From Acetobacteraceae bacterium (GTDB lineage Bacteria > Pseudomonadota > Alphaproteobacteria > Acetobacterales > Acetobacteraceae), in NCBI GenBank assembly GCA_965213855.1, contig CBDCAA010000002.1, positions 8,401-72,400 of the forward strand: a stretch of DNA of 64,000 bases, given 5' to 3'. The position numbers were made by a program, and so were the translations under genes. The notes beneath the pieces were generated by a model. The model saw only the letters and a program-made list of their open reading frames with translations. It had not been told where the DNA came from and searched no databases. Of this stretch, positions 2,676-62,837 are shown piece by piece. How positions within the stretch are numbered: the first letter of the stretch is position 1; every line of letters starts with the position of its first letter.

Positions 2676-4976
<2,301 letters not shown>

Positions 4977-32629: not shown

Positions 32630-36778
<4,149 letters not shown>

Positions 36779-36848
36779 GCGTCGAACCTTTCAGCAAAAG
36801 GGTGCGGCCGGCATGTGCGCCGGCCGCAATCGTCAATCAGCCGCCCGC

Positions 36849-41027
<4,179 letters not shown>

Positions 41028-46510: not shown

Positions 46511-47110
46511 GTGAAGCACCTTGTCCTCGCGGCCGCCACCATCCTCCTCGCGCCCGCGGCATTCGCCCAAGGCTCGCCATCGGTCGACGACCTCATCCGC
46601 GACCTGAAGCCCCACGCAGACCAGCGCACCCGCGGCATCCACGCGATCGCCCCGGCCATGCCGGACGCTCCGGCAACGCCGACCTCCATGCGCTACCCGA
46701 ACCGAGCACGCCCGTCCGCCCCCCCGCAGACCGCGGTGCCGGCCCCGGCCGTGAGCGACCTCGCCTCCACCAGCATGCAGGTCCAGTTCGAGAACGGGTC
46801 GGACCGCCTCACCCCGGCCGCGACGCGCGAGCTGGACAAGCTCGGCCGCGCTTTGTCGAACGCGGAGCTGTCAAGCTACCGCTTCCGTATCGAGGGCCAC
46901 ACCGACGCCGTCGGCAGCCGGGACATGAACCAGATGCTCTCCGAGCGTCGCGCGACGGCCGTGGTCGACTACGTCACCACCCATTATGGCGTGGACCGCT
47001 CGCGGTTGACGGCCATCGGCATGGGCTTCAATCAGATGGCGATACCGACCGCGGAGGGCATTGCCGAGCCCCGCAACCGCCGGGTGCAGATCGTCAACGT
47101 CGGCGCCTGA
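46511..47110 (+). CDS. OmpA-family peptidoglycan-binding protein
   Basis: Track ORF 46277..47110 trimmed to GTG 46511 (GGGAGA Shine-Dalgarno), giving the signal peptide (M)KHLVLAAATILLAPAAFAQ. OmpA_C-like domain (VQFENGSDRLTPAATRELDKLGRAL...RFRIEGHTDAVGSRDMNQMLSERRATAV). Confidence 0.8.
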   Translation: MKHLVLAAATILLAPAAFAQGSPSVDDLIRDLKPHADQRTRGIHAIAPAMPDAPATPTSMRYPNRARPSAPPQTAVPAPAVSDLASTSMQVQFENGSDRLTPAATRELDKLGRALSNAELSSYRFRIEGHTDAVGSRDMNQMLSERRATAVVDYVTTHYGVDRSRLTAIGMGFNQMAIPTAEGIAEPRNRRVQIVNVGA

Positions 47111-47113: not shown

Positions 47114-50100
47114 TCAGAGCGCTGCGGGCCCACGGACCGAGCCGGCGACAGGCGTGCCGGCCTTCGGCGCCGCCGCCTGGCCGACCAGCGCAAACGGCGC
47201 CCAGAAGAACGGGTGGCTGAACTCCGCCGGAAGCCCGTTGCCGGCCCGCTCCAGCATCACGCCCTGCGCCTGCTGCAGCGCCGCCGCGACACCCAGCCCC
47301 GGGTCCGCCCGCATCCGTCGCAGCGTGTCGGCGACGATGAACGTCGCCGCACTGTCGCTCACCTCCCAATGCGTGATCAGCAGCGCCCGCGCGCCGCCGA
47401 AGAAGAAACTGCGCGCCAGCGTCGATAGGCTCTCGCCCCCGCCAAGCGTGCCATTCGGCCCGCCCGAGTTGCACGCCGACAGGATGACCAAGTCCGCATC
47501 GAGTTTGATCTGCGCCAGGTCCGACGCCGTCAGCAGCGCGCCCGACGCGTCCGCCGCCCCCGCCGGCGCGCTCGCCACCAGCGCCGGCTCGTTCTGGCAG
47601 CGCAGCTCCGACGGCAGGATCGCGTGCGTCGCGAAATGCAGCACCCGGTAGTCCGACAGCGCGCGGGTCTCGACCGCCCGTGCCGTGAACGCGCTTCCCA
47701 GCAGCTCGTCGCCCGCCGAGCCGCCCAGCAGCTCCCGCGCCTTGCTCAGCTCGACCGTCGCGGACGGCAGCGGCGGCAGATGCGCCAGCAGCGTCGCGCT
47801 GTCGCCGCAATTTGCCGGGAATGTCCGCCGCGCCTGGGCCAGCGTCACGGGGTGAAAGTCGCCGAACCCGAACCACGGCCGGCTCGCCCGCGACCCGCCG
47901 CTCACCTTGCGCAGCGCCGTGAAGTTGGCCGCCGACGGCACGTGCCCGATCGCCATCCGCCGTGCGAGCCACGGCGCCGCGCCCAGCCGCGCGGGATCGC
48001 CATGCCCGGTCAGCATCACGCCGAACGGCAGCGAGAGCAGGCTTCCGGACGGCGCGACCGTCAGCGCCGTCACCCCGTCCAGCTTCGGCGCGACGTCGCC
48101 GAACACGTCGTCGAACAACGCCTCGGCCGCCTGCGTGTCGAACGCCGGCAAGGTCGGCTCCATCGCGCTCCGGACCCGCAGCACCAGCGGGTCGATCGCC
48201 CGCGCCCCGCCATGGAGGCGCCCGACCGATACCGCACCGTCGCGCAGCAGGAACACGTAGCCGGCCTCATCGGACAGCGTGATCGCTACGAACGCCTCCC
48301 CGGGCCGCAGCGTCGCCAGCACGGTGTCGGCCGACACCGCCTGCTGGATCAGCTGGTCATAGTTCGGCGCCGCTTCCTGCAGCCGCGACTCCTGCGTCGC
48401 CAGGCCGGCGCGCGCCTCCCCCTCCTCCTGGTCCAGCGCCGTCCGCGCCGCGGCCGTGACCGGTGCGCCCGAATCCAGCAGGTCCTGCCGCCTCCGGAGC
48501 ACCCCGGCCACCCGAGCCGCCGCATCCTGCTGCTCCCGGATCGCTTCGCCCAGCTTGGGATTGGCGCTGCTCCCGGCCAGCCGGGCAGAAGCCTGCTGGA
48601 TCTGCTGGCTCGTCGTGCTCCCCTGCACAAGCTGGGAGGCCAGGAACATCTCCCGCCGCAATGCCTCCGCCCGCGCCGGGTCCCGCGTCTCGGCGGCAGC
48701 CCCCGCGAACGAATCGAGGCACCCGCTCATCGGGCCCGGCTGGAATGCGCTCTTGATCTCCTGCAGGATCGCCATGGCATTCCGGCAAACAGGGACCGCC
48801 GCCTCCGCCTGCCCGGCCCGCACCAGCTCGCGCGCCTGCAACAGCAGCACGAGCGCCTGCGGGCGAGACGACGGATAGGCGCGCAAGAACGACCGGCTGC
48901 TGTTCTCGAATGCCGACAGCGCGACCGGCTCGTTGCCTGCCTGCGACGCGCTCACCCCTTCGGCCCGGTCCAGCCGCGCCGTCAGTTCCGGCCGCCCGAG
49001 CCCGGCATCCTGCGCCACGGTCGCCGCCAAATGAAGCATCGCCTCGCTCTCGTCACGCCGCCCCATGCCGCGCAGCACGACGCCCTGATAGCGCCGCGCC
49101 TCGACCAGCCCCGCAACCGCGGCCCGAAGCTGGCGCTCCAGCGGCGTTGCCGTCGCGGCCTCCAGGCTCGCCTCGATACTGTCCCGCGATCGCGGCGGCG
49201 GCCGCAGCGCATCGGCTGGCAGCACCGCCAAATACCCGGCATCGGCCCGCCGCAACAACGCCAGCGCCGCCTCGTCATGGTGCTGGTTGAACTCGTGTAG
49301 GCCCTCGTAGTGCAGCAAGCGCGGCCGCAACGTCACATCGCCCTGCTGCTGCGCCGCCAGCCGCTCGGCGCGCTTGAACAGCGCCTCCGCCTCGAGGAAC
49401 CGCCCCTGATTGGACAGTTGCAGCGCCAGGTGCATCGCGGGGTCAGCCACGTTCGGGTTGTCACGCCCGAACGCCTTCTCCTCCAGCGCGAGCGCCGCGC
49501 CATAGGCGCTCTCCGCCGCGGCCGGATTATCGGCCAGGTTCGCGCGCGCGCCCTGCTGCATCAGCGCGTCGTACTCCCGCACGTCGCCGGTCGCCCGCGC
49601 GGCCGTACCCCGCCGCTCCGCCTGCAGCGCCTGCAGCGCGGTGTTGGTGATCACCGTCCCGCGGGCCCGCCCGGATAGGATCGCGATCGAACGCCCGACC
49701 ACCGGCTCGGCCGACGTCACGCCATCGGCCAGCCACGCCTGCCCGCCGGACAATGCCACCAGCGCCAAATGCGGCCACCCGCCCGCCTTGCCCGTGCACA
49801 CCATCCGCATCGCCGGCATGCCGTCCAGCGTCATCGGCTGCGGCGCCGGACACAGGTAGTTGGCATCCAGCCCGGTGCGCCAGGGCCCGGCCGTGGCCAG
49901 GGCGCCCAGCGTCGCCTCCGTCGCCGCCCCGCCGGCCCGCACCCGCGCGCTCGGCTGCTGCCATGTCCCGCAATAGACCCGCGCCCCGGCCGTCCGCCCC
50001 GCCGCCTGCACGCACGCCTCGCCGACCTGGTTGCTTCCCAGCTCGACCGAGTCGGGCGACGCGCCACCTGCCGCGCCGGACACATACGCCTCAGGCGGCG

Positions 50101-50155
50101 GCGCCGTGCACCCCGCCAGCAGCAGCGCCCCGACCAGGCAGGCGCGCATTGTCAT
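47114..50155 (-). CDS. Exported TPR-like/CHAT-domain (caspase-fold protease) lipoprotein
   Basis: 1013 aa. Lipobox MTMRACLVGALLLAG|C (Cys16). Cys-containing N-terminal domain, long helical repeat region, and a C-terminal CHAT domain with both dyad contexts (YRVLHFATHA, nt about 47625-47645; DLVILSACNSGG, nt about 47463-47489). Its ATG 50155 overlaps the tpsA TGA (ATGA). Confidence 0.85.
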   Translation of the reverse strand: MTMRACLVGALLLAGCTAPPPEAYVSGAAGGASPDSVELGSNQVGEACVQAAGRTAGARVYCGTWQQPSARVRAGGAATEATLGALATAGPWRTGLDANYLCPAPQPMTLDGMPAMRMVCTGKAGGWPHLALVALSGGQAWLADGVTSAEPVVGRSIAILSGRARGTVITNTALQALQAERRGTAARATGDVREYDALMQQGARANLADNPAAAESAYGAALALEEKAFGRDNPNVADPAMHLALQLSNQGRFLEAEALFKRAERLAAQQQGDVTLRPRLLHYEGLHEFNQHHDEAALALLRRADAGYLAVLPADALRPPPRSRDSIEASLEAATATPLERQLRAAVAGLVEARRYQGVVLRGMGRRDESEAMLHLAATVAQDAGLGRPELTARLDRAEGVSASQAGNEPVALSAFENSSRSFLRAYPSSRPQALVLLLQARELVRAGQAEAAVPVCRNAMAILQEIKSAFQPGPMSGCLDSFAGAAAETRDPARAEALRREMFLASQLVQGSTTSQQIQQASARLAGSSANPKLGEAIREQQDAAARVAGVLRRRQDLLDSGAPVTAAARTALDQEEGEARAGLATQESRLQEAAPNYDQLIQQAVSADTVLATLRPGEAFVAITLSDEAGYVFLLRDGAVSVGRLHGGARAIDPLVLRVRSAMEPTLPAFDTQAAEALFDDVFGDVAPKLDGVTALTVAPSGSLLSLPFGVMLTGHGDPARLGAAPWLARRMAIGHVPSAANFTALRKVSGGSRASRPWFGFGDFHPVTLAQARRTFPANCGDSATLLAHLPPLPSATVELSKARELLGGSAGDELLGSAFTARAVETRALSDYRVLHFATHAILPSELRCQNEPALVASAPAGAADASGALLTASDLAQIKLDADLVILSACNSGGPNGTLGGGESLSTLARSFFFGGARALLITHWEVSDSAATFIVADTLRRMRADPGLGVAAALQQAQGVMLERAGNGLPAEFSHPFFWAPFALVGQAAAPKAGTPVAGSVRGPAAL

Positions 50156-53100
50156 AGCCCCTGCTCCGTGATGTTCGGGACCAGCAGCGCGCCGTCATCC
50201 TCCTGCTCGCGGAAGAACCCGAGGCTCAGCTCCTTCAACGGATTGCCGATCGGCAACGCCTGGGGCCGCAGCACGACGCAGTTTACGCTCGCCAGCGCGC
50301 AGGAGTTGATCTCGTAACGCGGGTTCGGGGCCGGCGACACGGCCGAAAGCCCTGCAGCGCCGGTCCCCGACTGGCCCGCCACCGTCCCGCTTAGCCGGAT
50401 CCCCCCCGCGCCCGGCCCGGTGCCGGTGTAGAGCGCGAACAGGTTCCGCACCGTGATCTGGCCCGAGGCCGACCCGGCGCCAACATCCACGATCAGGTTC
50501 CCGGCCGGCACGAAGAGGTTGCCCAGCACGATCTGCCCGGCCCCGCTCGTCAGGTCGATCCGCACCGTCGCATTCGCATAGCCGGCCAGCGGCCTGATCG
50601 ACGCCGTCGGCGATTGCACCAGGCTTGACGTCGCTTCGAAGTAACCGCCCGGCGCGCCACTCCCGGCTGTCGGCAACGCCGCCGCCTTCACCCCGCTCGG
50701 CTGCACCACCCCGCCCAGGCTCAACGCGCCGCCCGGCAGCGCGATGCCGTCCGCGATCACCGTCAGCAGCGGCGTCGCGACCGTCCCGCCCAGCGTCGCC
50801 GATCGTGCCGGTGCCGCAGCCGGGCCGGATAGCGTCAGCGACCCGCCCGCATTGCTGGTGCTGCCCGCCGCCAACACGACGTCGCCGGCTGCGCGAAGCG
50901 CGATCGTGCCGGCCGCATCCAGCGACCCGGTGCTCGACAACGTGCTCACGCCCGCATCGAGCCCGATCGTCGCCGCCCTCACGCGCCCGCCAACCGAGAT
51001 GCCGTTGGCCGTGACCGACGCCGCCCCACTGGCCGTCACGGTCCCACCCAGCGTCGCGCCCCCGCCGGACACGGACGTGATCCTCCCTCCGGCCAAGGTC
51101 CCGCTCGGTCCGACCGTCAGGCTCGACCCGGTCGACACCTGCAGCGCCGGCGCGCTCACGGTGCCCTCCACGTCCACCGCCGCCGCCGTGATGCCGACCT
51201 GCGTGCCTCCCGTCAGCGTACCCGTCACCAGCGTCGTTCCGGGCCCCGCCGTGGCCGTCAGCACGCCCGCGGCCTGCACCACGCCGCTGATGGTCGTCGC
51301 GGCGCCCGACGCCAAGCTGACGCTCTGCCCGCTTGCGGCGCCCGCGATGGCCAGCGCGCCGTCAGTCGTCACCCGCAACGCCCCGCCCGCCGCTACCCCG
51401 TTCTGGACCGTCAAACCGCGGGTGTCGCTCAGCGCCACCGCGCCGGGCGCGCCGATCGGCCCGGCCTGGTCGAACCCGCCAGCAACGGAGAGGTCCTGCC
51501 CGGCCGACCCGGTCACCGTCCGTGCCGAGGCCCCGCTCACCAACACGCCCTGCCCGGCCGACACGCTCAGCGTCGCCGGCGTCGCGACTCCGGTGCCGCT
51601 CAGGCCGGCCGCAGCCGTCAGCGTCACCGCGCTGCCGGCCTGCAGGTTGCTGAACGACAGCTCCCCTGCCGCTTGCCCCTCCGGATCCGAAGGCGTGCGC
51701 GTGCCGGCCTGGGCCGAAAGCGTCAGCGCGCCCGCGGCGCTATCGTTCGTGGCCACCAGGTTGCGGCTGTCGTTCAGCGCGAGGTCGCCGGTTCTCGTGT
51801 TGAACTGGCCGAGCGTCGCAATCTGGTTGCCCTGCTGCGCCGTCGCCCCCGTCGTCGCCGTCCCAAGTGTCGCCGCCGTGGCCGAACCCGTCAGGACATC
51901 CGCCACGATCGCGCCGCCGCCGGCCTCGCTGATCGCGCCGGACGCCACGACCGTCACCGCGCTGCCCGCCAGCGTCCCGGTGATGGCGATCTGCCCGTTG
52001 GCGCCGGACGTGGTGATCGTCAACGGGCCGCCCGAAACCGCTGCCGTGGTCGCATCCAGCGGATCGCCCGCCGGCCCCGCCCGGACGATCCCTGCCAGCG
52101 TCAGCCCGGCCGCCTGCTGCGTCACCCCGGCGGCACTCACTTGCGCCGTCGGCAGGTCTGCCAGGACCAGGCTCAGCCGCGCCTGGTAGTCGGACACGGT
52201 GAACAGATTGTTCGCTGCCCCCCCGAAGCTCGCGTGCCCCCCCGCCGCCGCGGCGCCGAGCGTGTAGGTCGGTCGCCCATTCGCATCCGTGCCGCTGGCC
52301 GAATACCCGGCGCTCCCCGTCAGGGTCAGCCCGGTCAGCGCACCGCTCGCCGTCGTGTCCCCGGCCGAGTGGAGCTCGATCGTGTCGGCGCCGATGCTGC
52401 CGACCGCCAGCGTGCCGCCATCGAGCCGCACGACCGACGGGCGATAAGCGCCCACCACAGCCGTGTTCGAGGCGGTCGCGGCGGGCGCGTTCAGGTCGCA
52501 GCCCGGGCAGTGCAACGCCAGGTTCAACCCCCCGGCCGCCACCCTTGCGTCCCCGGCGAGCACCGCCGGCGCGAACTGCACGGCATACCCCAACTCGGTC
52601 ACTTGGACCTGGTTCGCCGACAGGGTCCCGCCCAGCCCCGCCCCGCCGCCCGATACGCCGGCCCCGGCCAGGAAGATCGTCCCGACGCCCGCGCCGGACC
52701 CGGCCTCGATCGTGCCGCCGGACTGTCCGACCTGCCCGCCGGCTGTGATGCGGACGGCGCTGCCCGAGGCGATGAGCCCCGCGCTCTGCAGGAAGTCCCC
52801 ACCGGTCGCGATGCCGAGCACGGACCCTGCGGTCAGCACCGCGCTGCTCGCCAGGCTGCCGGACGCGCTCACGCCCAGCGTGTTCCCCGCCGTCAACACC
52901 CCGCTCAGCGTGCCGCCGGTCGCCGTGATCGTCAGGTCGTTGCTCGCGTAGACGTCTCCTCCGCCAAACGCGATCGGCACCGGCGTGTTGCCGGCCGCCG
53001 TCGTCGCCAGCCGGTTCGCATGCAACTGCCCGCCCGTCACCGTCGCGCCACCCGCGATCGCCACGGTGTTGCCGAAGACCTGGCCCCCGGACAGCGTCAG

Positions 53101-56100
53101 CCCGCCGCCGAGCGTGACCAGCGGCGCGTCGACCGTGCCCGCCGTGACCGTCGATCCCAGCGCCGCCTGGATCGCGACCTGGCTCTGCGCGCCGACGGTG
53201 CCGCCGGCCACCGTCACGGCCGGGCCAGCCCCATCGGCCGTCAGCACCACGTTGCCCGACGCGATGACCGGCACAATGCAGGCCCCGATCGCCCCCGTGA
53301 TCGTCACGGTGATCGCGTTCGCCGTGATGCTGGTGTTGTCGCTCGTGACGTTGCCCGTGACCGACAGGGGCGACGCGCCGCTCGGGCCATGGGCCTGCAA
53401 CGTGAACGCGCCCTGCGCCGAGATGACGCCGTTGGCCGGCCCGGTGCCGACCGTGAAGTCGCCCAACGCGGCTACGCCGTTCGTCGTCGCCGCGGCTTCC
53501 AGGAGGCTGACGTCGTAGCGGGTGGCGCTGGTGTCGACGGTCTGCGCGCGGCCCTGCAGGGTCCCGGCCGTGATCGTGCTGCCCGGCCCGCCTGCACCGT
53601 TGAGCGTGATCGCGGCCTGCCCGGCGCTGCCGTCGCGCGCGACCAGCGTCACTGTCTGTGCCCCGGCATTAAGCGCTGCCGCGACGCCGGCATCGCCGAT
53701 CGCGATCGTGCCACCGACCCGGCCCGCACCCTGCACGGTGCCGACGCTGAGCAGGCCGAGCGCGCCGGCGCCGGCCGACACGGTCCCGTGCACCACCAGC
53801 CCGCCTTGGCCGCTATTGGCGTCCGGCGTGTCGGCGATCGCCAGCGCGGCGCCGGCTGCAAACCCGTTGAGGACATCGAAATGGTTTGCGGGCGCCGCGC
53901 CCGGCGCGCTCGCAAGCGTCAGCGGGCCGAAGCTGCCATCGGCGAGGCGGCCCACCAGCCGAACCTCGCCACCTGCCTGTCCCGTCAGGGTTCCGGTCAC
54001 GGCCGGGTTCGCCCCGCCCGCCTGCCGCCCGATCGACAGTCCCGCGGCCGTGTTCTCGGTGATGTCGCCCGTCGCATACAGGCCCAGCGTCGCCGCGAGG
54101 TTCGTGAGCCCGAGCGGTGCATTCAATGCCAAGCTACCCGCCGCATGGGTCAACGTTCCGTCCAGGCTGCCCAGCAGCAGGCTCTGCCGCCCGCCACTGC
54201 CGACGTTCGCCGCCCCGCCGATCGTGCTGATTAGGCCGAGTTGCGACGACACCAGCGAACCCGCACCGGTCTGCGCCGCATCCACGCTCATCGCCAGCCC
54301 GGCCGTCAGCGGCGCGATCGCCACCCGTCCATCCAGCGCCTCCACCCGCGGCGTGGCGCCGAGGATGTTCAGCCGGTCCGTCTGCAGGCTGATCTGGTTG
54401 AACAGCACATCCGTCGCCGCCAGGGCCGAGGGGGCCGGCGCCGGGCTCGGTCCGACCGGCCGGGCGTTGGTGGCGAACGCACCCCCTTGCACCAGCCCGA
54501 ACCGCAGGCTCCCGCTGTGCGCGACGCCGTCGACGGTGATGGCCGGCGCAGTGAGCGCGATGGTGCTCGCCCCCATGCTGGTCGCGGTCTGGGCGCCGCC
54601 GGCCGCCACCAGGTCCACCACGGTCAACGTCCCCCCGGTGGTCAGCGTGACGCTGCCGCCCGCATAATACGGCCCGAGTTGGGCGACGCTGTTGCCCGCG
54701 TTGCCGAGCACGACCGACCCCGCCGTGGCCGGCGCATTCCAGGTCGGCAGCGCGTTCGCGGCGGGGGTGAAGCCATATCCGGCCGTCCCCAGAAGCGTCC
54801 CCGCCGTCACGATGCCCGACGCGGTCTGGGTGGTGTCGCCCACCGAATGCAGCTCGATCACGTCGGCAGCGATCGTCCCGAGCACCAGGCTGTTGCCATC
54901 CACCCGCAGCGTCGCCGGCCGGCCCGTCCCCGGCGTCGCCACCAGCGGATAGGTCGCGGACGCGACGTTCGCGTCGCAGCCCGGGCAATGCAGCGTGATC
55001 GGCTGCAGCGGCCCGACGGCGACGGTCGCCGTCCCCAGCAGCGCGGGCGGCGCGAACGTCAGCGCGACGTTCGGTTCCGACACCTGGATCGTCCCCGCCG
55101 ACAGGACCCCCTGCAGCAACGCCGTGCTGGCGGGCCCGGTGCCAAGCAGCGTGACCGTGCCCGACCCCGCCGCTCCCGACCCGGCCTCGATCGTGCCGGC
55201 CGTCTGCGTCACGTTGCCGCTCGTGCTGATCGTGACGGCCGCGGTCGCCGCGATCGTTCCGGCCGCCTGCGTGAAATCCCCGGCCGTCATTACCGTCAGG
55301 CTCCCGCCCGCCGCCAGCGCCACCAGGCTGGCCGGCGTGCTGCCGAGCGTGAGCGGGCCGGCGGAGTTGATCGTCAGGTTGCCACCGCTCGCGATCGTCC
55401 CGTCCAACGTCGGCGTGCCGACCGTCACGGTAAGAGCGTTGTCGGCATAGACGTCGCCCGAGCCCTGCACGGTCACGGCACCCGGATTCAGAGCATGCGC
55501 CCGCAGGCTGCCACCGCTGACCGTCGTGCCGCCCGCGACCGTGACAGTGCTGCCCAGCACCTGGCCGCCGGCGACCAGCAGCCCGCCGGTGGTGACCCCG
55601 ACCGTCGGCCCGTTCAGCAACCCCGAGATGGTGGTGAGCCCGCTCGACGCCAGCACGACACCGCTCTGCGCCCCGACCGTTCCGCCGATGGCCAGCAGCC
55701 CCGTGTTGTTCAGCGTCACCGTGCCGCCGATGCCGCCCACGGCGCAGGCGCCGATGCCGCCGCTGACCGTCATCGCGTTGGCGGTGATCGTGATCGTCTT
55801 GGCCGCGACCAGCCCCGTGACCCCCAACGACGGGCCCCCCGATCGCACCGTGAAGCCGCCCTGCGCGGACAGTAGCCCGCTCGGCAGCGTCGTGCCGACC
55901 GAGACGTTGCCCAGCGCGGCGACCGCGTTCGACGCGTTCCCGAGCACGACGTCATACGCGGTCGCTGCCGTGTCCGCCGTCGAGGCCCGGGCCGCGAGCG
56001 TGCCGGCGGCGAGGGTGCTCGCGGCCGTCTGCGTGATCGCCGCCGCCGTCGAAACGCCATCGCGCGCGGCCAGCGTCACCGTCTGGTTCGCAGCACTCAC

Positions 56101-59100
56101 CGTCGCCGCGGCCGTCGCCGACCCCAGCGCGATCGTCCCGCCCTGCCGCACCCCGCCCAGCACGGCGCCCACGCTCAGCAGCCCGAGGTCGCCAGCTCCC
56201 GGCGCGATCGTGCCCGTGACGGCCAGCCCACCAAGGCCGGCGCCGGCCACCGCACCGTCCGCGACGCTCAGGCCGTTGGCGGAGAAACCCGCCAGCACGT
56301 CGAAATGATTCGTCGGGACGATCGTGTCGGCGTTGGCCAGGGTCAAGGCGCCGTTGCCGCCCGTCAGCGTCACCGCCCCGGCCGCCTGCCCGGTCAGCGT
56401 GCCCACGATCCTCGGCGCCGCGCCCACGGCCGGGCGCCCGATCGTTAAGCCGCCCGGCGCCGTCTCGTTGATCGCGCCGCTGGAATACAAACCAAGCGTG
56501 CCGGCGACGTTCACAAGGGTCATCGGCGCATTCACCGTCAGGCTCGACGGCGCCCCCGGGAGCGTCCCGTCGAGGCTGCCCAGCCGGAGCGTCTGGGGTC
56601 CCCCGAAGCCGATGCTTGATGCGGTGCCCAGCGTGTTCACCAGCGCGAGCTGCGGCGCGACCACCCATGTCCCGGCCGAGGCCGCTCCATCGACCGAGAC
56701 CGCCGCCCCGGCGGTGAACGGCGCGATCGCGACCACCCCGCCCGCCGCGTTCACCACCGGGGCGGCGCCCGACAGCGTCAGGTGGTCGGTCGCGAGGCCC
56801 ACGGTGCCATAGGCCGTGGCGGTCGCCGCAATCGTCGGCAGCGCGAAGATGCCGGCATTGGCCGGGCGCAGGGCCGTGCTGAACGCGCCGTTCGTCACCG
56901 TCCCGAGCGCGACGAAGCCGGACGCGCCAAGGCCGTCCACCGTCAGCGTCGGCGCCTGCAGGGTGACCGTCTGGTTCGCCCCGGCCACGACCTTGTCCAC
57001 CACCGTCATCGCGGTGTTCGAGGCGACCGACAGGATGCCGCCCGCATAATAGGGGCCGAGCCTGGCGATGCTGTTGGGCGCGATCAGCCCCGCGCCGCCC
57101 GCGCCGGCCGGCGTGTTCCAGGTCGGCAGCGCGAAGGGCTGGATCGTCACCGCATAACCGGCCGTCCCCAAAAGCGTCGCGGCCGTGAACGGCGCGGTCT
57201 GGGTCGTCGAACCGGTCGAATGCAGCTCGAGCGTGCCGGCCGTGAAATTCGACGTGAGGTTCAGCGTGCCGGAGTCTACCCGCACCGCCGCCGCCACCGG
57301 GCCGGCAATTAGGCCGCCGGCGGTCACGCCGATGCCGGGCGACAGGCCATCGCAGGACGGGCAGTGCAGCGTGACGGCCGCGGCCGGCGCGGTCTGGGTG
57401 AACCCGCCCGCCAGGGCGGTGGGACCGAAGCTGACGGCCGCGAATGGCTCGATCACCTGGATGGTCGGCCCAACGAGCGTCCCGCCCAGCGTTACGGCGC
57501 CGGAGCCGACCGAATACAGCGTCACGCCCGCCTGGCTTGCCAGCGTTCCGCCCGACTGCGTGATCGTGCCGCTCGCCGGCACCCCGCCACCGCCGCCGAT
57601 CGCCAGCGACCCGCCGCTCACGATCTGCCCGCCGGTCTGGATGAAGCCGCCCTGTAGAGTGAAGCTGATGTTGCCCGGCGCGAACACGTCCGCACCCGTG
57701 CTGAACACCGGCGTGGCCGACGGCTCCGTCACGCTGACCGACGGCGCGCTGATCACCGACCCCGCCGCGAACCCCGTCGAGACGAGCGACAGCGCGGCCG
57801 GCGAATAGACCGAGCCGCCGGTGAACGAGTAGGTGCCGCCGAGCCCGCCGGTCAGCACCAGCGTCCCGCCGCTCTGCATCACGTTGCCGCCGATGCTGAC
57901 GAGGTTCGCCGCAACCGAACCGCCCGTGAGCGTCAGGCCGTTGTTGATCTGCAGCGTGGCCGTCGTGGACGCCGGGTTGCCCGCCTCCAGGAACCCGGCG
58001 GTCACCGTCGTCCCGGTCGCCCCGTTCACGACCGTCTTGTTCTCGCCGCCCACCACGCCGGCGATCGTCACGTGGCCGGTCGCGTTCAGCGTCACCAGCC
58101 CGGCCGTCACGGGATCGATCGCGCAGGCGCCAACGTTGCCGTTGATCACCAGGTCCGTGGTCGACAGCGTCACGTTGCGCGCCGTCGCGGTATGGCCGGC
58201 CAGCTGCGTCAGCGGCTGGGTGTCGGCGAGCGCCAGGTTGCCCTGCTTGACGGTGAAGTCGCTCAGGTTGCCGATCCCGTTGCCGATGCCGTTCAGGATG
58301 GCGTCGCGGCCGGTCGTGACCGCCGCGTTGGCGTCGCCGACCGTCCCGGTCAGCGTGCCCGCCGTGATCGTCCCGGCGACGGATTGCGTCAGCCCCAGCA
58401 CGCTCGACAGGCTCAGCGTGTTGGCGCCGACGTTCACCGGCCCGGCGAGGTTCAGCGCGCCGGTGACGTCGAAGGTCGCATGTCCGGTCGCGGACGCTGC
58501 GGCGATGCTGGTGAACGTGTTCGCCTTGTCCAGCGTGGTCGGCCCCGCCGTGCTGGTCGTGTCCACGAACCCGGCGTTGATCGTGCCCGTCGATTCCGTG
58601 ATTGTCGCGGCGTTCAGCGTCAGCTTGTTCGCGCTGCCGACGTCCACCGCGCCGGCGATGTCGAGCGCACCCGTGGTGGTGATCGCGCTGTTGCCGGTTC
58701 CGCTGGTCAGGCCGGTGGCCGCGGTCCCGAGTGCGCCGATTGCGTTGCCCGGGTTGTTCAGCGTAATCGACCCGCTCGCGCTGCCGACGAGTTGCCCGGC
58801 GCCCACCGGCGCCGTGGAAGCCTGGTTGACGCTGCCGGTCGTGCGCAATTCGAGCGTGCCGGCGATGCTGAACGGCGACGCGAACGTGATCGCGGTCGCC
58901 GCCGCACCATCGGCGGGCGTCGTGACCCCGTCCGACAAGCTGGCCTGGCCGATCCGCACGCGGGGCGCCGCAAGGGTCGCCGTCGGGTCGATGACCGTCG
59001 TGTTGCCGATCGTCAGCGCTGCGCCGTTCGTCGTCGCCAGGTCGATCCGCTGCCCCGCCGTGACCAAGACGCCCGGCCCGACACCGGCCGTGTTGCCGCT

Positions 59101-60990
59101 GATGCTGACCACGCCGCCCGCCGACGCCGCCGAGACGTTGGCGTTCACGAACACGCTCGCGCCCGCCGCCGTGCCGTTCGATGCGAGGAACACGCTCCCG
59201 TTCGTTGACGTGACCGCGCCGCCGACGCTCAGCACCCCATTCGTGGTCACGCCGCTGATTCCGGCACTCGCCGCGCTGGCCGTCAGCACCACGTTGCCCG
59301 ACGCGGTGATGCTCGTCGGCAGCGCGGCCGTCGCGCTCACCGTCAGGTTGTTGCCCGCCTGCAGCACCAGGTTCTGCAGCACCGGCGTCGGCTGTGCGAG
59401 CCCGCCGGTCAGGTTGATCGTGACGCCGGCGGTGACCGTGACGTTGCCGGTCGCCTGGATCGTCACGTTGCCCGCGAAGCCGCTGATCGTCCCGTCGGAG
59501 ATCGTGTAGCTCGACCCGGTGCCCTGGCCGGCGGGAACGGTGCCGGTGCCGGTGCTGCCGTCGTCGCTCGCGCTTCCCGCCGCCCCGTGCACGATCGTCA
59601 CGCTGTCCGGGTCCAACAGGATGTTCCCCGGCGTCCCATGCGGCGCCGCCGTGCTGATCGTGCCCGTCAGTGAATAGTTCGACCGGCCTGACACTTCCAC
59701 GCTGCCGCCATTGCCGCCCCGGGCGCCACCCTTGGCCGACAGCCCGCCCGCCATCGCCGTCCGCTCGGTCGCCAGGATCGCGACGTTGCCGCCGCTGCCC
59801 GTGCCTCGCCCGTCCGCAGAGATCCGCGCCCCCGCCGCCAGGTCGACCGCCCGCGCTGCGCCGTCCGGCACGCCGCCGCCTTGCGCCCGCGCCCGCGCCA
59901 ACGTCGTGCCGACCGCGACCGTGCCGCCGCCGCCCTGCCCGCTCGCCGAGATCCGCGCGCCCGCCTTCACCGCGACCGTGTCGCTCGCCACCAGGGTCAC
60001 GGCGCCGCCACCTGCCCCGGGCGCCCGCCCGTCGGCATGGATCGCGCCCTCGATGCTGATCGTGCCGCCGACCGCCGACACCACGATCGACCCGGCATGG
60101 CCGCCCACCGTGTCCGCCTGCAGCCGCCCGCCGGCGCTGACCAGATTCTGCACGATCCCGTCGGCCGCCTTGGCCGTCAGCACGATCGTCCCGCCATCGG
60201 CCATGATCGTCCCGGTGTTCGTCACCAGCGCCGTCCCGCCCCCAGGGGTGTGGCGCACCTCCTTCGTCACGTCGACGCTCATCAGCCCGTCGCCATACAG
60301 GTCGACGGTGTGCGCCTCCGCCCCGGCGAGCACGACGTGGCCCATCTTGGCGCGGATCACCCCGGAATTGGCCACCTGCGGCGCCACCAGCGCGGCCAGC
60401 CCGGTTCCTGCGACGCTGATCTCGCCCGCATTGCTGATCCGCGCGTCGGCGTGGCCCGGGCGGTCGAACAGCATCTTGCCGGCCATGAAGTTCTGCGTGC
60501 TGATCCCGGCCGCGGACACGATCAGCGTCTGCGCGTTCACCTGGCTGCCCTGGTAGAACACCACCCCGCTCGGGTTCGTGATCACCACCTGGCCGTTGGC
60601 CTGGATCCGTCCCGCGATCTGCGACGGGTCCGGCCCGGTCACCCGGTTCAGCACGATGGCACTCGCACTGGGCTGCAGATACTGCACCGTGTGCCCGCTG
60701 CCGATGTCGTAGCTGCGCCAGTCGATCGCCGCCCGCTGGCTCGATTGCGCCACCGTGGTCTGGGCCGTGGACTGGCTGATGCTCGCGGCACCCCCCACCA
60801 CGGCGCCCCCTATCGGCCGCGCGCCCGGCGCCGGCTGCGCCGCCACCGGGAAGGCCAGCAGCAGCACCGTCGTCGCCTGCAGCGCGGTGGACGCCAGCAG
60901 CGCCGGACGCGGGCGCCGGCGCAGCCCGGCCACGCGCGCCGCCTGCCCCGTCCGCCGCGCCCGCCGCCGTGCCGCCCGGTCCTGTGTCAT
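50152..60990 (-). CDS. Giant two-partner-secretion exoprotein (TpsA; filamentous-haemagglutinin-family N-terminal domain plus about 3000 aa of beta-strand repeats)
   Basis: Track ORF 50152..61506 trimmed to ATG 60990 (the upstream 172 codons overlap tpsB in another frame), giving 3612 aa. Basic extended signal peptide (MTQDRAARRRARRTG...LLLAFPVAAQ). TPS domain (IDWRSYDIGSGHTVQYLQPSASAIVLNRVTGPDPSQIAGRIQANGQVVITNPSGVVF). GGNGGSVEVSG...GNILLDPDSVTI motif. The remainder is G/T/A/V-rich. Confidence 0.9.
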   Translation of the reverse strand: MTQDRAARRRARRTGQAARVAGLRRRPRPALLASTALQATTVLLLAFPVAAQPAPGARPIGGAVVGGAASISQSTAQTTVAQSSQRAAIDWRSYDIGSGHTVQYLQPSASAIVLNRVTGPDPSQIAGRIQANGQVVITNPSGVVFYQGSQVNAQTLIVSAAGISTQNFMAGKMLFDRPGHADARISNAGEISVAGTGLAALVAPQVANSGVIRAKMGHVVLAGAEAHTVDLYGDGLMSVDVTKEVRHTPGGGTALVTNTGTIMADGGTIVLTAKAADGIVQNLVSAGGRLQADTVGGHAGSIVVSAVGGTISIEGAIHADGRAPGAGGGAVTLVASDTVAVKAGARISASGQGGGGTVAVGTTLARARAQGGGVPDGAARAVDLAAGARISADGRGTGSGGNVAILATERTAMAGGLSAKGGARGGNGGSVEVSGRSNYSLTGTISTAAPHGTPGNILLDPDSVTIVHGAAGSASDDGSTGTGTVPAGQGTGSSYTISDGTISGFAGNVTIQATGNVTVTAGVTINLTGGLAQPTPVLQNLVLQAGNNLTVSATAALPTSITASGNVVLTASAASAGISGVTTNGVLSVGGAVTSTNGSVFLASNGTAAGASVFVNANVSAASAGGVVSISGNTAGVGPGVLVTAGQRIDLATTNGAALTIGNTTVIDPTATLAAPRVRIGQASLSDGVTTPADGAAATAITFASPFSIAGTLELRTTGSVNQASTAPVGAGQLVGSASGSITLNNPGNAIGALGTAATGLTSGTGNSAITTTGALDIAGAVDVGSANKLTLNAATITESTGTINAGFVDTTSTAGPTTLDKANTFTSIAAASATGHATFDVTGALNLAGPVNVGANTLSLSSVLGLTQSVAGTITAGTLTGTVGDANAAVTTGRDAILNGIGNGIGNLSDFTVKQGNLALADTQPLTQLAGHTATARNVTLSTTDLVINGNVGACAIDPVTAGLVTLNATGHVTIAGVVGGENKTVVNGATGTTVTAGFLEAGNPASTTATLQINNGLTLTGGSVAANLVSIGGNVMQSGGTLVLTGGLGGTYSFTGGSVYSPAALSLVSTGFAAGSVISAPSVSVTEPSATPVFSTGADVFAPGNISFTLQGGFIQTGGQIVSGGSLAIGGGGGVPASGTITQSGGTLASQAGVTLYSVGSGAVTLGGTLVGPTIQVIEPFAAVSFGPTALAGGFTQTAPAAAVTLHCPSCDGLSPGIGVTAGGLIAGPVAAAVRVDSGTLNLTSNFTAGTLELHSTGSTTQTAPFTAATLLGTAGYAVTIQPFALPTWNTPAGAGGAGLIAPNSIARLGPYYAGGILSVASNTAMTVVDKVVAGANQTVTLQAPTLTVDGLGASGFVALGTVTNGAFSTALRPANAGIFALPTIAATATAYGTVGLATDHLTLSGAAPVVNAAGGVVAIAPFTAGAAVSVDGAASAGTWVVAPQLALVNTLGTASSIGFGGPQTLRLGSLDGTLPGAPSSLTVNAPMTLVNVAGTLGLYSSGAINETAPGGLTIGRPAVGAAPRIVGTLTGQAAGAVTLTGGNGALTLANADTIVPTNHFDVLAGFSANGLSVADGAVAGAGLGGLAVTGTIAPGAGDLGLLSVGAVLGGVRQGGTIALGSATAAATVSAANQTVTLAARDGVSTAAAITQTAASTLAAGTLAARASTADTAATAYDVVLGNASNAVAALGNVSVGTTLPSGLLSAQGGFTVRSGGPSLGVTGLVAAKTITITANAMTVSGGIGACAVGGIGGTVTLNNTGLLAIGGTVGAQSGVVLASSGLTTISGLLNGPTVGVTTGGLLVAGGQVLGSTVTVAGGTTVSGGSLRAHALNPGAVTVQGSGDVYADNALTVTVGTPTLDGTIASGGNLTINSAGPLTLGSTPASLVALAAGGSLTVMTAGDFTQAAGTIAATAAVTISTSGNVTQTAGTIEAGSGAAGSGTVTLLGTGPASTALLQGVLSAGTIQVSEPNVALTFAPPALLGTATVAVGPLQPITLHCPGCDANVASATYPLVATPGTGRPATLRVDGNSLVLGTIAADVIELHSVGDTTQTASGIVTAGTLLGTAGYGFTPAANALPTWNAPATAGSVVLGNAGNSVAQLGPYYAGGSVTLTTGGTLTVVDLVAAGGAQTATSMGASTIALTAPAITVDGVAHSGSLRFGLVQGGAFATNARPVGPSPAPAPSALAATDVLFNQISLQTDRLNILGATPRVEALDGRVAIAPLTAGLAMSVDAAQTGAGSLVSSQLGLISTIGGAANVGSGGRQSLLLGSLDGTLTHAAGSLALNAPLGLTNLAATLGLYATGDITENTAAGLSIGRQAGGANPAVTGTLTGQAGGEVRLVGRLADGSFGPLTLASAPGAAPANHFDVLNGFAAGAALAIADTPDANSGQGGLVVHGTVSAGAGALGLLSVGTVQGAGRVGGTIAIGDAGVAAALNAGAQTVTLVARDGSAGQAAITLNGAGGPGSTITAGTLQGRAQTVDTSATRYDVSLLEAAATTNGVAALGDFTVGTGPANGVISAQGAFTLQAHGPSGASPLSVTGNVTSDNTSITANAITVTITGAIGACIVPVIASGNVVLTADGAGPAVTVAGGTVGAQSQVAIQAALGSTVTAGTVDAPLVTLGGGLTLSGGQVFGNTVAIAGGATVTGGQLHANRLATTAAGNTPVPIAFGGGDVYASNDLTITATGGTLSGVLTAGNTLGVSASGSLASSAVLTAGSVLGIATGGDFLQSAGLIASGSAVRITAGGQVGQSGGTIEAGSGAGVGTIFLAGAGVSGGGAGLGGTLSANQVQVTELGYAVQFAPAVLAGDARVAAGGLNLALHCPGCDLNAPAATASNTAVVGAYRPSVVRLDGGTLAVGSIGADTIELHSAGDTTASGALTGLTLTGSAGYSASGTDANGRPTYTLGAAAAGGHASFGGAANNLFTVSDYQARLSLVLADLPTAQVSAAGVTQQAAGLTLAGIVRAGPAGDPLDATTAAVSGGPLTITTSGANGQIAITGTLAGSAVTVVASGAISEAGGGAIVADVLTGSATAATLGTATTGATAQQGNQIATLGQFNTRTGDLALNDSRNLVATNDSAAGALTLSAQAGTRTPSDPEGQAAGELSFSNLQAGSAVTLTAAAGLSGTGVATPATLSVSAGQGVLVSGASARTVTGSAGQDLSVAGGFDQAGPIGAPGAVALSDTRGLTVQNGVAAGGALRVTTDGALAIAGAASGQSVSLASGAATTISGVVQAAGVLTATAGPGTTLVTGTLTGGTQVGITAAAVDVEGTVSAPALQVSTGSSLTVGPSGTLAGGRITSVSGGGATLGGTVTASGAASVTANGISVGGRVRAATIGLDAGVSTLSSTGSLDAAGTIALRAAGDVVLAAGSTSNAGGSLTLSGPAAAPARSATLGGTVATPLLTVIADGIALPGGALSLGGVVQPSGVKAAALPTAGSGAPGGYFEATSSLVQSPTASIRPLAGYANATVRIDLTSGAGQIVLGNLFVPAGNLIVDVGAGSASGQITVRNLFALYTGTGPGAGGIRLSGTVAGQSGTGAAGLSAVSPAPNPRYEINSCALASVNCVVLRPQALPIGNPLKELSLGFFREQEDDGALLVPNITEQGL
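52250..58330 (-). repeat. Three diverged tandem mega-repeats (about 2.4-2.5 kb, 790-825 aa each) inside tpsA; boundaries approximate
   Basis: Landmark pairs recur with constant spacing. G-A-C codons at 58123, 55744 and 53278. H-C-P-x-C-D at 57352-57363, 54976-54987 and 52498-52509. Collinear motifs in copies 1 and 2 (ELHS.G.TTQTA, LPTWN.PA, LGPYYAGG, LGLY..G.I.E, GTLTGQA.G, NHFDVL.GF, QTVTL.ARDG). Confidence 0.75.
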
Positions 60991-61052
60991 GCTCGAACCC
61001 ACCCCAAACCATCCGTCCGCCACGGCTCGTCCGCGTTCAGAACGATACCGTA

Positions 61053-62837
61053 TCAGAAACGCGTGAGCACGCGCCAGTAGGCCGCTTGCGCCCGCAGCGC
61101 CAACACCCCCTGGTTCGAGGGACCCTCCGGGTTCCGCGTCACCCGCCCTACCCCCTCGACCTCGAACGCGACGTTCGGCCCCAACTGCGCCCGAACGCCG
61201 CCGCCGAACGAGCGCAGCCGCCGGTTCGGGTCGGCACGCTGGTTCTCCCAGGTCTCGCCCCAGTCGTGGAACAGGTAGAATTGCGGGCTGACGGTCCCGC
61301 TCACCCCGAACGCATCGACGTTGAAGCTCGTGTTCAACTGCAGCTCGACGGACGCGGTCAGCGCGTTGTCCCCCGTCACCTCGCCCGCGTAGTAGCCGCG
61401 GTTGTAGCGGATGCCGCCCAGGAAGAACTTCTCCGACGGCGGCAGCACGCTGTTGCTCACCTGCCCGGCTACCAGCCCGAACAGCACCACCGAACCGTCC
61501 GTCCACGGGTGGAATAGCGTCTGGCTGCGCGTCAGCTCGGCGTTGAACTTGAAGAAATCCGTCTTTTCTCCGGCGCGCCCGGCCTGCGGGTCGCCGTTCT
61601 GCGTCGCCCCCAGCCCCGACACTCCTTGCGACAGCCGGAACGACGCGTTGTTAATCCCGGTCCGGTCGTCGCCGAACACCACGTCCTGCAGCGCGTAGTC
61701 CGCGCCGGCGCGCAACACGCGCAGGCTGTCGAAGCTCGCCCGCACCGCCGTCGCCGCGCCGGCCGCGTTGGGCGGCCCGCTATCCGTGCGGATGTCGCTC
61801 TCGAGCGCATCGAGCGTGCCCACCGCGATCAGCGTCTGCTGCCGGCTGCGGATGATCGGATAGCTCGCCTGCGCCCCGAACACACGGGTCCGCCCGTCAT
61901 AGCCCAGCACGCGCAGGTTGCCCGACGGCTCGGTCCCCCCCTCGCCGGCATAGATCCGCACCTTGACGCCCGAGCTGCCGACGAAGAACTCGCTTGCCGC
62001 CTGCCCGAACGTCTGCGTGTTGTTGAAGCTGTGCAGGATGCTCAGCTCCGTCCGCTCGCCGAACTGCGTGAAGCTGTTGAACCCGGCGATCGCCAGCAAC
62101 TGCTCCGGCCCGGTCTGCCGGAACGCCCGGTTGTCGGCCGTCAGCAGCCCGTCCACCGCCTTGCGGCTGACCTGCGCGACCAGCGTCACCGCCGCCGGGT
62201 CATCGCCAGGCCGCAGCACGGAGCGCAGCGTGACGCCGGGAACGTCGTTGGCCAGCAGCAGGTAGCGCTCCAGCGTCGCGATCCGGATCGGCCGCTCCTC
62301 GGTCAGCCGGTTCAGGAAGCGCAGCACCTGCGTGCCGGCCGGCCCGATGTCGCCGTCCAGCTTGACGTCGGCGATATAGCCCTCGACCACGGTGAACCGC
62401 AGGTGCCCGCCCGCGTCCAGCGCCGACGACACCGTCGTGAGCAGGTAGCCATCCCCCCGGTAGCGCGCCAGCAGCGCCTGCCGCGCCTGCTCGACGCGCG
62501 ACAGCGGGACCGCCGCGCCGGTCAGCCCCGCGGTCGCTGCAGCCAGCTCGCCCGGCGGATACACGCTGGCCCCGGTCACGCTCACGCTGCCGATCCGCGC
62601 CGTCTGGCCCGGCGCGAACGACGCCGCGGGCGGCGGCGCCGGCTGTTGCAGCCCGGGCGCGGTCGTCGGCGGGCTGGGCTGCCGGTCGCGATCGATCGGC
62701 GAGCCCTGCGGAACGAGCACGGCCGGCAGCAGCCCACCGCCCTGACCGGGCAGAATGACCTGGGCAGACGCTGTCGAGGACAGCAGCAAGGCGGCTGGGA
62801 ATAGTATTGGCGCAGACCACGGGAGAAATTTCAACAT
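61053..62837 (-). CDS. TpsB outer-membrane transporter (ShlB/FhaC/HecB family, POTRA + beta-barrel)
   Basis: 594 aa. Signal peptide MLKFLPWSAPILFPAALLLSSTASAQ, Pro-rich linker, POTRA-like region (IGSVSVTGASVYPPGEL...RFTVVEGYIADVKLDG), barrel ending ...AYWRVLTRF (terminal aromatic). 62 nt upstream of tpsA. Confidence 0.88.
   Translation of the reverse strand: MLKFLPWSAPILFPAALLLSSTASAQVILPGQGGGLLPAVLVPQGSPIDRDRQPSPPTTAPGLQQPAPPPAASFAPGQTARIGSVSVTGASVYPPGELAAATAGLTGAAVPLSRVEQARQALLARYRGDGYLLTTVSSALDAGGHLRFTVVEGYIADVKLDGDIGPAGTQVLRFLNRLTEERPIRIATLERYLLLANDVPGVTLRSVLRPGDDPAAVTLVAQVSRKAVDGLLTADNRAFRQTGPEQLLAIAGFNSFTQFGERTELSILHSFNNTQTFGQAASEFFVGSSGVKVRIYAGEGGTEPSGNLRVLGYDGRTRVFGAQASYPIIRSRQQTLIAVGTLDALESDIRTDSGPPNAAGAATAVRASFDSLRVLRAGADYALQDVVFGDDRTGINNASFRLSQGVSGLGATQNGDPQAGRAGEKTDFFKFNAELTRSQTLFHPWTDGSVVLFGLVAGQVSNSVLPPSEKFFLGGIRYNRGYYAGEVTGDNALTASVELQLNTSFNVDAFGVSGTVSPQFYLFHDWGETWENQRADPNRRLRSFGGGVRAQLGPNVAFEVEGVGRVTRNPEGPSNQGVLALRAQAAYWRVLTRF

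Follow-up and report, generated by a model that had tools for sequence, protein, structure and literature searches.

Two-partner secretion (TPS) is regarded as the simplest secretion route, and the holding, maturation and release of the exported partner, TpsA, have been studied in detail mainly for FhaB of Bordetella. The Bordetella proteases are DegP, a member of the HtrA family, the tail-specific CtpA, and SphB1, a subtilisin autotransporter. The stretch analysed here, hereafter the window, spans 64,000 nucleotides of an Acetobacteraceae genome (contig CBDCAA010000002.1, positions 8,401 to 72,400), and hosts a TPS system whose tpsB and tpsA genes are followed by a third gene, encoding a predicted lipoprotein with a tetratricopeptide repeat (TPR)-like solenoid and a CHAT domain, a putative caspase-fold protease. 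The tpsB-tpsA-CHAT trio is a conserved, tightly joined unit, and no chance neighbourhood. The module is spread over many soil and water bacteria, mostly environmental Alphaproteobacteria. According to two reports (PMC8263021, PMC4542190), the C-terminal part of FhaB is retained in the periplasm and removed by regulated proteolysis, and its conserved extreme C-terminus governs processing. The window locus resembles the Bordetella FhaB/FhaC pair in being a TPS system with a giant, putatively beta-helical exoprotein. DegP, CtpA and SphB1, however, are serine proteases encoded away from fhaB, whereas here a lipoprotein predicted to be a cysteine protease of clan CD is encoded directly after tpsA, with a stop/start overlap.

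HMW1C, EtpC and CdiC are the products of third, accessory genes of TPS loci, and known accessories include glycosyltransferases, acyltransferases, immunity proteins and small lipoproteins. To our knowledge no TPS accessory is a caspase-fold protease, and none of those loci is joined to a receptor kinase. In NlpI-Prc of E. coli and LbcA-CtpA of P. aeruginosa, an outer-membrane TPR lipoprotein presents substrates to a tail-recognising periplasmic protease. Adaptor and serine protease are separate in these pairs, and the substrates are cell-wall hydrolases; here, in contrast, TPR region and putative cysteine protease are fused, and linked to a secretion substrate. In the BcpAIOB, HMW1ABC, EtpBAC and CdiBCAI loci, as in the window, a TpsB/TpsA pair is accompanied by a dedicated accessory in the operon. 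The original prediction for this locus, made from the letters of the window, had taken canonical TPS systems as two-component. Loci with a third accessory gene are known, however, an example being that of BcpO, which may take the form of a periplasmic lipoprotein that BcpA requires for its function (PMC5422565).

The same prediction had named a cytoplasmic protein, Csx29, as the best-studied TPR-CHAT protein. A periplasmic one with a solved structure exists, however. For DdvA of Myxococcus xanthus (PDB 8rot/8rw5), cleavage by the CHAT domain has been proposed to convert a cue in the envelope into a proteolytic signal (PMC11506125), and an extracytoplasmic CHAT protein is therefore not unprecedented in itself. 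DdvA and the window protein share a TPR solenoid joined to a CHAT domain with a His/Cys dyad, known in the latter from sequence and model. DdvA alone has a transmembrane (TM) helix as anchor and a cytoplasmic zinc anti-sigma domain binding a sigma factor of the extracytoplasmic function (ECF) group, controls a CBASS/CRISPR island, and lacks three active-site helices. The window protein, unlike DdvA, is a predicted lipoprotein, carries another N-terminal domain, Cys-rich and of alpha/beta type, has no sigma factor partner, and is linked to TPS; in the window, as in those related loci that were inspected, no adjacent gene was noted to encode a sigma factor. Csx29 of type III-E CRISPR (Craspase) has the same TPR-CHAT architecture and fold, and is a dedicated protease cutting one nearby-encoded partner, Csx30, one group of which shares a DUF4384 domain with the ectodomain of the kinase linked to the present module. 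Csx29, in turn, is cytoplasmic, CRISPR-associated and activated by RNA-bound Cas7-11, whereas the CHAT gene of the window has TPS, kinase and OmpA genes as neighbours and encodes a lipobox. Since the defining partners of both are absent, the locus is neither a Craspase nor a DdvA-type anti-sigma factor. PADLOC gave no match for the CHAT protein or TpsB, and a reading of the locus as a defence system was rejected on this ground; the PADLOC matches of the kinase and of the OmpA-like protein are generic family ones. The literature searched, from which subscription-only articles fell out, holds no link between CHAT proteins and TPS (TpsA/TpsB, filamentous hemagglutinin, polymorphic toxins), and the main TPS review mentions neither CHAT nor caspases.

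The features of the locus, in window coordinates and with the evidence for each, are the following.

61053 to 62837, minus strand: tpsB, 594 residues, Omp85-family TpsB transporter (list of open reading frames (ORFs), translation, Pfam)
60991 to 61052, minus strand: tpsB-tpsA spacer, 62 nt (sequence)
50152 to 60990, minus strand: tpsA, 3612-residue exoprotein (ORF list, Pfam, NCBIfam)
60040 to 60798, minus strand: TPS secretion domain of TpsA, residues 65-317 (Pfam PF05860)
51748 to 58869, minus strand: three tandem repeats of ~800 residues in TpsA, residues ~708-3081 (pairwise BLAST)
50155 to 50334, minus strand: C-terminal module of TpsA, last 60 residues (alignment of 31 tails)
50152 to 50155, minus strand: ATGA stop/start overlap of tpsA and the CHAT gene (sequence)
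47114 to 50155, minus strand: gene of the predicted TPR-CHAT lipoprotein, 1013 residues (ORF list, Pfam, orthologues, AlphaFold2 (AF2), Foldseek)
50108 to 50155, minus strand: putative lipoprotein signal peptide with lipobox LLAG/C, Cys16 (translation, invariant Cys16)
49646 to 50053, minus strand: family-specific N-terminal alpha/beta domain, residues ~35-170 (AF2, invariant columns)
48356 to 49642, minus strand: TPR-like alpha-solenoid, residues ~172-600 (AF2 helices 172-595, matches to kinesin-light-chain (KLC) TPR profiles)
47177 to 48328, minus strand: CHAT (clan CD, caspase-fold) domain, predicted protease, residues ~610-993 (Pfam, AF2, Foldseek)
63089 to 64000, plus strand: receptor Ser/Thr kinase gene, cut by the window end (translation; orthologues)
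46514 to 47110, plus strand: OmpA-family periplasmic (peptidoglycan-binding) protein (Pfam OmpA E=1.2e-18, translation)

ORF list and sequence agree on the limits of the three minus-strand genes and on the 62-nt spacer, which stand as originally predicted. The junction between tpsA and the CHAT gene reads CTATGACAATG; the ATG at 50155-50153 overlaps the TGA at 50154-50152. The overlap named in the prediction is thus present in the sequence, but may not mark the true start of the CHAT protein. A second ATG at 50149 would leave the order TGA-ca-ATG, with a 2-nt spacer in place of the overlap, and is an equally good start because Met3 is nearly invariant in alignments of the orthologues. Judged from the sequence, coupling of translation from tpsA to the CHAT gene is compatible with either start.

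More than 200 full-length orthologues of the CHAT protein were found, 47-65% identical, and all those carrying a taxon name belong to Acetobacteraceae or related Rhodospirillales, among which Roseomonas and Falsiroseomonas. A scan of one genome per species led to 80 loci, and added Acidocella, Acidisphaera, Belnapia, Humitalea and Acetobacter. Final junction and tail counts refer to 72 non-redundant related loci (Acetobacteraceae/Rhodospirillales) with upstream DNA. A long ORF ends upstream of the CHAT gene in all 72 of them, at a median of 61.5 nt before the codon of the lipobox Cys, and 58 of them offer a plausible CHAT start codon within -4 to +5 nt of the TpsA stop. When the window TpsA and TpsB were used as tblastn queries, the TpsA C-terminus was found directly before the CHAT gene in related loci, and TpsB upstream of tpsA wherever the 10-kb flank extends far enough. 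In the apparent exceptions a giant ORF is still in place, TpsA being there too divergent to be detected. The synteny of CHAT and TPS genes, on which the original prediction had made its case depend, is therefore borne out. The notion of a dedicated third component holds in so far as the trio is a conserved tight unit, whereas maturation, release or anchoring of TpsA is a role that we infer.

Trios have been identified also at greater distance. Niveispirillum cyanobacteriorum (Azospirillaceae) has one on a replicon listed as a plasmid, with a CHAT protein 31% identical to that of the window, and two metagenome contigs (L087, L088) feature Pfam TPS, ShlB and POTRA_2 domains, and a 4-nt overlap between tpsA and the CHAT gene. 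In these three distant loci CHAT identity spans 31-35%. That the trio persists at ~31% identity, and despite local rearrangements, speaks for selection. A different type of TPR-CHAT protein, encoded by Rhizobium and Bradyrhizobium plasmids, stands alone, without TPS neighbours.

The third protein is a true member of the CHAT family. Pfam CHAT (PF12770) matches residues 676-993 at E=1.7e-43, over profile positions 3-289 of 289, and the translation carries, along with the lipobox LLAG/C, the motifs HFATHA and LSACNSG, the two catalytic contexts pointed out in the prediction. The catalytic residues, His844 (encoded at 47624-47626) and Cys895 (47471-47473), are invariant among 106 aligned sequences. 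In the AF2 model (pLDDT 88.7, pTM 0.83) the protein is made of three parts, an N-terminal domain (35-170), a TPR-like solenoid (172-600) and the CHAT domain (610-993), and the dyad lies at the C-terminal ends of two adjacent strands, 836-846 (H844) and 889-895 (C895). Protease activity is thus predicted, and the invariance of the dyad and of its motifs argues for catalysis. Full-length CHAT match, AF2 model and Foldseek all point to a caspase-hemoglobinase fold. Foldseek ranks DdvA best among PDB entries (E=2.6e-11 to 7.8e-11), then separase and Csx29, with probability 1.00. These links are visible by fold comparison only; sequence searches of PDB gave no match for the CHAT domain alone, and only TPR proteins for the full-length profile. 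The TPR-like region had been foreseen, and is confirmed less directly. TPR_12 scores 21 bits, under the Pfam cutoff of 30, but the KLC TPR profile matches (E=1e-19), and the solenoid of the AF2 model, back the assignment.

The lipoprotein assignment rests on the lipobox and on its invariance. The residues MTMRACLVGALLLAG/C fit the pattern [LVI][ASTVI][GAS]C, and Cys16 is invariant in 20 as in 106 orthologues; distant orthologues keep the lipobox, as LLSAC in Niveispirillum. Eight additional Cys residues (48, 62, 102, 120, 457, 479, 783 and 853) are invariant in the 106 sequences, the first four of which reside in the N-terminal alpha/beta domain. So many invariant Cys suggest disulfides, hence a site outside the cytoplasm. 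Export, another claim of the prediction, is strongly suggested by the lipobox Cys, by the other eight, and by the closest fold being that of the periplasmic DdvA. The N-terminal domain is specific to the family: an exhaustive HMMER search retrieved 236 clusters among 1.84 billion representatives, in which it is always N-terminal, with full-length matches of ~1000 residues, and which show it in no other architecture.

The locus is a true TPS system, in line with the domains originally assigned to its first two proteins. The tpsB product carries a signal peptide (MLKFLPWSAPILFPAALLLSSTASA/Q), a POTRA_2 domain (E=1.4e-7) and a barrel of the ShlB/FhaC type (ShlB E=8e-13, Omp85 E=1.6e-8), and the combination of an Omp85-family barrel with a ShlB-type POTRA places it among type Vb transporters. 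In TpsA a long basic region precedes a signal-peptide-like hydrophobic stretch, which is followed by the TPS or haemagglutination domain (PF05860 E=6.4e-30, covering 11-250 of the 252 profile positions); a Sec signal followed by the TPS domain at the N-terminus characterises type Vb exoproteins. NCBIfam adhes_NPXG also matches (E=1.8e-21). Export of TpsA through TpsB is predicted on these grounds. The protein is rich in Ala (17.5%), Gly (16.8%) and Thr (12.4%), and its repeats are pairwise 29-42% identical over ~800 residues, each with one HCP[GS]CD (CxxC) motif (Cys 1210/1213, 2002/2005, 2828/2831). Each repeat has one more Cys ~254 residues upstream of HCP[GS]CD.

The central part of TpsA is poorly conserved across species, and the last ~60 residues are conserved. 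In the window these include a loop of the form N-x-C-x6-C (YEINSCALASVNC), IGNPL, the acidic patch EQEDDG, and the tail ALLVPNITEQGL-COOH. The 31 tails aligned follow the same order of loop, P-x-x-N-P-[LI], acidic patch and extreme tail, the last with the consensus D-D-x-D-[LV]-L-L-P-N-[VI]-[SA]-[DE]-x-D-[YF]-COOH. Most TpsAs (62/72) end in P-x-[IVL]-x3-[DE]-[YFWL]-COOH, all 62 of which keep Pro(-8) and Asp(-2), and the Cys loop is present in 45/72 loci. Niveispirillum TpsA ends in FPNLGRVW, a related form (F-P-N-L-x-x-x-W-COOH). The window clade ends in PN[IV][ST][ED]QGL-COOH (50155-50190, minus strand; ~9950-9997 in locus L089), the closest relative reading PNVSDQGL before the stop; in this clade Asp(-2), otherwise invariant, is gone, and the last residue is no longer aromatic. 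Neither the tail motif nor the Cys loop is present in two TpsAs that lack a CHAT neighbour and whose TPS domains are the closest, those of Azospirillum argentinense and Methylosinus. A homologue search with the last 522 residues of TpsA gave 4 matches, a number explained by the low-complexity sequence and unsuited to a census of tails. The C-terminal module of TpsA is, in the light of its sequence, a candidate for what the CHAT lipoprotein recognises. In A. argentinense (L090, 35086-35811) a SapC-family gene immediately follows the CHAT-less giant tpsA, and another lies near a CHAT/CHASE2 locus (L086, 6383-7120) dealt with below.

The original prediction had described the flanks of the trio as signalling and envelope genes. 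Two of them, the kinase and the OmpA-like gene, turned out to be members of a conserved neighbourhood rather than incidental; the PAS chemoreceptor is not conserved. In the window the kinase gene is divergent from tpsB, has a TTG start at 63089 with GGAGG 9 nt upstream, and is represented by the kinase domain only, TM helix and DUF4384 being known from orthologues. One other locus (L018) has a kinase divergent in the same way. In 47-48/72 loci the orthologue comes next after the CHAT gene, co-directional with it and within a few nt. Full-length orthologues consist of the kinase domain, one TM helix, a Pro/Ala-rich linker and a periplasmic domain, which is conserved in 42 loci and corresponds to DUF4384 (32.7 bits, cutoff 27, in locus L061 of Acidocella aquatica). 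The OmpA-like gene converges on the CHAT gene, the stop codons being 3 nt apart in the window, and homologues in 33 related loci often lie between the kinase and a cluster of type VI secretion system (T6SS) genes. In 31 loci (e.g. L061, 14887-15894, minus strand) the kinase and OmpA-like genes are separated by one for a protein of ~335 residues, which has a TM-like segment at its N-terminus and matches no Pfam family; the window lacks this gene.

T6SS genes (TssG, TssF, TssE, ImpE, TssC) follow the OmpA-like gene in 16-18 related loci (L061, 14887-22884; L046, L056, L072 and others). A search of the window revealed no T6SS homologues, and a role of the window locus as a T6SS accessory was consequently rejected, the lead coming from related loci only. 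The threonine-phosphorylation pathway of the PpkA type has its receptor Ser/Thr kinase gene inside a T6SS cluster, along with those of Fha and PppA; for comparison, the present module is flanked by T6SS genes in those 16-18 loci and by none in the window.

Variant loci contain a CHAT protein, a CHASE2-adenylate/guanylate cyclase, a protein of 236-237 residues without Pfam match, and TpsB (L082, 12951-26856; L086, 8050-17084). They reside in Sphingobium, which also has a TpsA-like protein that keeps the Cys loop, and in one metagenome contig. The two copies of the 236-237-residue protein resemble each other (E=3e-14). As a relative of the kinase ectodomain this protein was discarded, since it bears no resemblance to DUF4384. 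In both types of locus the TPS/CHAT pair has as its neighbour a signalling enzyme that spans the membrane and carries a sensor domain in the periplasm. This suggests that CHAT/TPS pairs have been repeatedly wired to periplasmic sensor enzymes.

All evidence on the module is so far computational. The mechanism that we infer from it comprises a periplasmic topology of the lipoprotein, its catalytic activity, TpsA as the substrate, a cleavage site in TpsA, and a coupling to the kinase. The C-terminus of TpsA proteins can stay in the periplasm during export, as exemplified by the FhaB prodomain and by the secretion arrest of CdiA, and TPR solenoids often bind free C-terminal tails. According to this view, TpsB would export the giant beta-helical TpsA, and the CHAT gene would be translated in step with tpsA, to yield a clan CD cysteine protease of TPR-CHAT type that is lipid-anchored and faces the periplasm. 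TpsA would keep its C-terminal end in the periplasm during or after export, as with the FhaB prodomain and CdiA, and the TPR solenoid and N-terminal domain would capture its free tail (N-x-C-x6-C ... DDxD-LLPN[VI]S-x-x-D[YF]-COOH; PN[IV][ST][ED]QGL-COOH in the window clade). The His844/Cys895 dyad would then cut near the tail, and so control retention versus release, or maturation, of the exoprotein. In most relatives the operon runs on into a bitopic Ser/Thr kinase with a periplasmic DUF4384, and the proteolytic event is therefore probably also read as a transmembrane signal. The CHAT lipoprotein may thus cut, or sense, the inner end of the giant TpsA. That it is a periplasm-facing clan CD protease dedicated to the TpsA C-terminus, capturing the tail and cutting nearby so as to bring about release, retention or maturation, we hold at a probability of roughly 45%.

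Several facts weigh on the other side. A lipoprotein of this sequence may face either the periplasm or the cell surface. The synteny comes entirely from related Alphaproteobacteria, and common ancestry inflates the counts. Ten of the 72 tails are off motif, some of them probably from frameshifted metagenome-assembled genomes, the window tail departs from the consensus in its last two residues (QGL for xDY), and the negative control for the tail, although its outcome agrees with the model, consists of two TpsAs only. Alternatively, the tail might be there for TpsB, for the OmpA-like protein, or for proteases with PDZ domains such as DegP and CtpA. To see in the acidic patch a caspase-type site is speculative, given the differing specificities of CHAT proteins: separase cuts after Arg, Csx29 after Met or Leu (PMC11506125).

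The kinase may be more than a reader of the event. CHAT could have as its main substrate not TpsA but the periplasmic part of the kinase, made of the Pro/Ala linker and DUF4384, and cleavage would switch the kinase, or the CHASE2 cyclase, and elicit a cytoplasmic response, possibly T6SS firing. This form of outside-in proteolytic signalling, the foremost alternative to the above view, is worth considering, though doubtful, as is the role that TpsA would play in it, that of an extracellular sensor filament whose periplasmic tail activates the protease, or inhibits it in a securin-like manner. In roughly two thirds of the loci the kinase gene comes right after the CHAT gene, and it is still adjacent after rearrangement in the window and in L018, but is not downstream of the CHAT gene in 24/72 loci, whose upstream side is mostly beyond the assessable DNA. 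The C-terminal domain of the kinase is kept in 42 loci, and scores above the DUF4384 cutoff in L061; the ectodomain, however, falls outside the window, and DUF4384 is presumed for this genome from orthologues. The same domain is the C-terminal one of a group of Csx30 proteins, and Csx29 cuts Csx30 within it (10.1101/2022.08.17.504292), yet this is an analogy drawn from a cytoplasmic system. DdvA has been proposed to signal by periplasmic CHAT autoproteolysis (PMC11506125), and the variant loci pair CHAT and TpsB with a CHASE2-cyclase. The T6SS genes which adjoin the module in 16-18 loci fit such an output, but represent a minority of cases and are missing in the window. A fuller version, in which TpsA senses contact or strain, its tail gates the CHAT lipoprotein, the protease cleaves the DUF4384 ectodomain or linker, or acts on the CHASE2 cyclase, and a phosphorylation response reaches, in some species, the adjacent T6SS, would make of the module a device from the cell surface to the cytoplasm, a periplasmic counterpart of the Craspase/separase logic; this appears rather unlikely.

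Proteolysis may also be absent, or limited to turnover. The lipoprotein would then act as a scaffold, chaperone or anchor, holding TpsA by its C-terminus on the inner side of the outer membrane, perhaps with a link to peptidoglycan by way of the OmpA-like protein, and keeping the filament attached to the cell. The binding of free C-terminal tails, common in TPR solenoids, would serve this purpose equally well, conservation within TpsA is highest at the extreme C-terminus, an OmpA-like peptidoglycan-binding protein is near in 33 loci, and the CHAT site of DdvA has been described as incomplete or inactive at rest (PMC11506125). The His/Cys dyad and the surrounding motifs, however, are invariant in 106 sequences, and we consider anchoring of this kind unlikely. 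PorU and GPI8 are clan CD enzymes with a transpeptidase-type attachment, and attachment of TpsA by a reaction of this type would be a sub-variant of the anchoring view; the acceptor molecule is purely hypothetical. Co-location without direct partnership would make of the CHAT lipoprotein a protease of general use in the envelope, or a protein of conflict or defence, that merely shares the TPS operon. CHAT proteins are indeed frequent in conflict systems, and the synteny is provided by one order-level lineage plus a few outliers. Against this stand the synteny in 72/72 loci with stop/start junctions of a few nt, the persistence of the trio at 31% identity, an N-terminal domain never met in other architectures, the lack of a PADLOC match for the CHAT protein, and a TpsA tail that co-varies, which render it highly improbable. 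Non-catalytic anchoring and mere co-location are the less likely because the dyad is invariant and the tight junction universal.

A dedicated caspase-fold protease and a conserved tail of its putative substrate make a defined pair to test. If the proposed cleavage of TpsA is true, clan CD/CHAT proteases would be extended into envelope biogenesis or signalling. The recurrent association with a DUF4384 receptor kinase hints at a general CHAT-DUF4384 partnership, and the module as a whole suggests a possible bacterial route coupling a surface filament to intracellular signalling.

Other genes are found in the vicinity of the module. The product of the window gene at 44302-46416 (plus strand) is a chemoreceptor that looks soluble and combines four PAS domains with an MCP signalling domain; since the related loci offer no counterpart, it is probably unconnected with the module. 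L074 (16986-20375, minus strand) encodes, at a distance of a few kb from its module, a second Ser/Thr kinase, a Tll0287-like/HAMP protein, and a protein with a Peptidase_C14 (caspase) and a peptidoglycan-binding domain. Many long ORFs on either strand, and in frames other than its own, run across tpsA, e.g. 57833-59509 (plus strand) and 55952-61012 (minus strand), some with a GC content at third codon positions (GC3) of 0.95. They were taken as spurious, since an Ala/Gly-rich gene at 73% GC is expected to give such ORFs. GC3 is 0.91-0.92 in the CHAT gene and tpsB, typical of coding DNA in a genome of ~70% GC. The first 43721 nt of the window host housekeeping genes, among which rpoB/rpoC (32630-41027), an AsmA-family protein (10654-13761), MgsA, an ABC transporter and a malic enzyme-PTA fusion, along with genes of the size of ribosomal protein genes and an ORF of the size of EF-Tu, assigned by position and size. 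Given these surroundings, the module resides in the core chromosome, in no obvious island. GC content climbs to 0.71-0.74 across the module.

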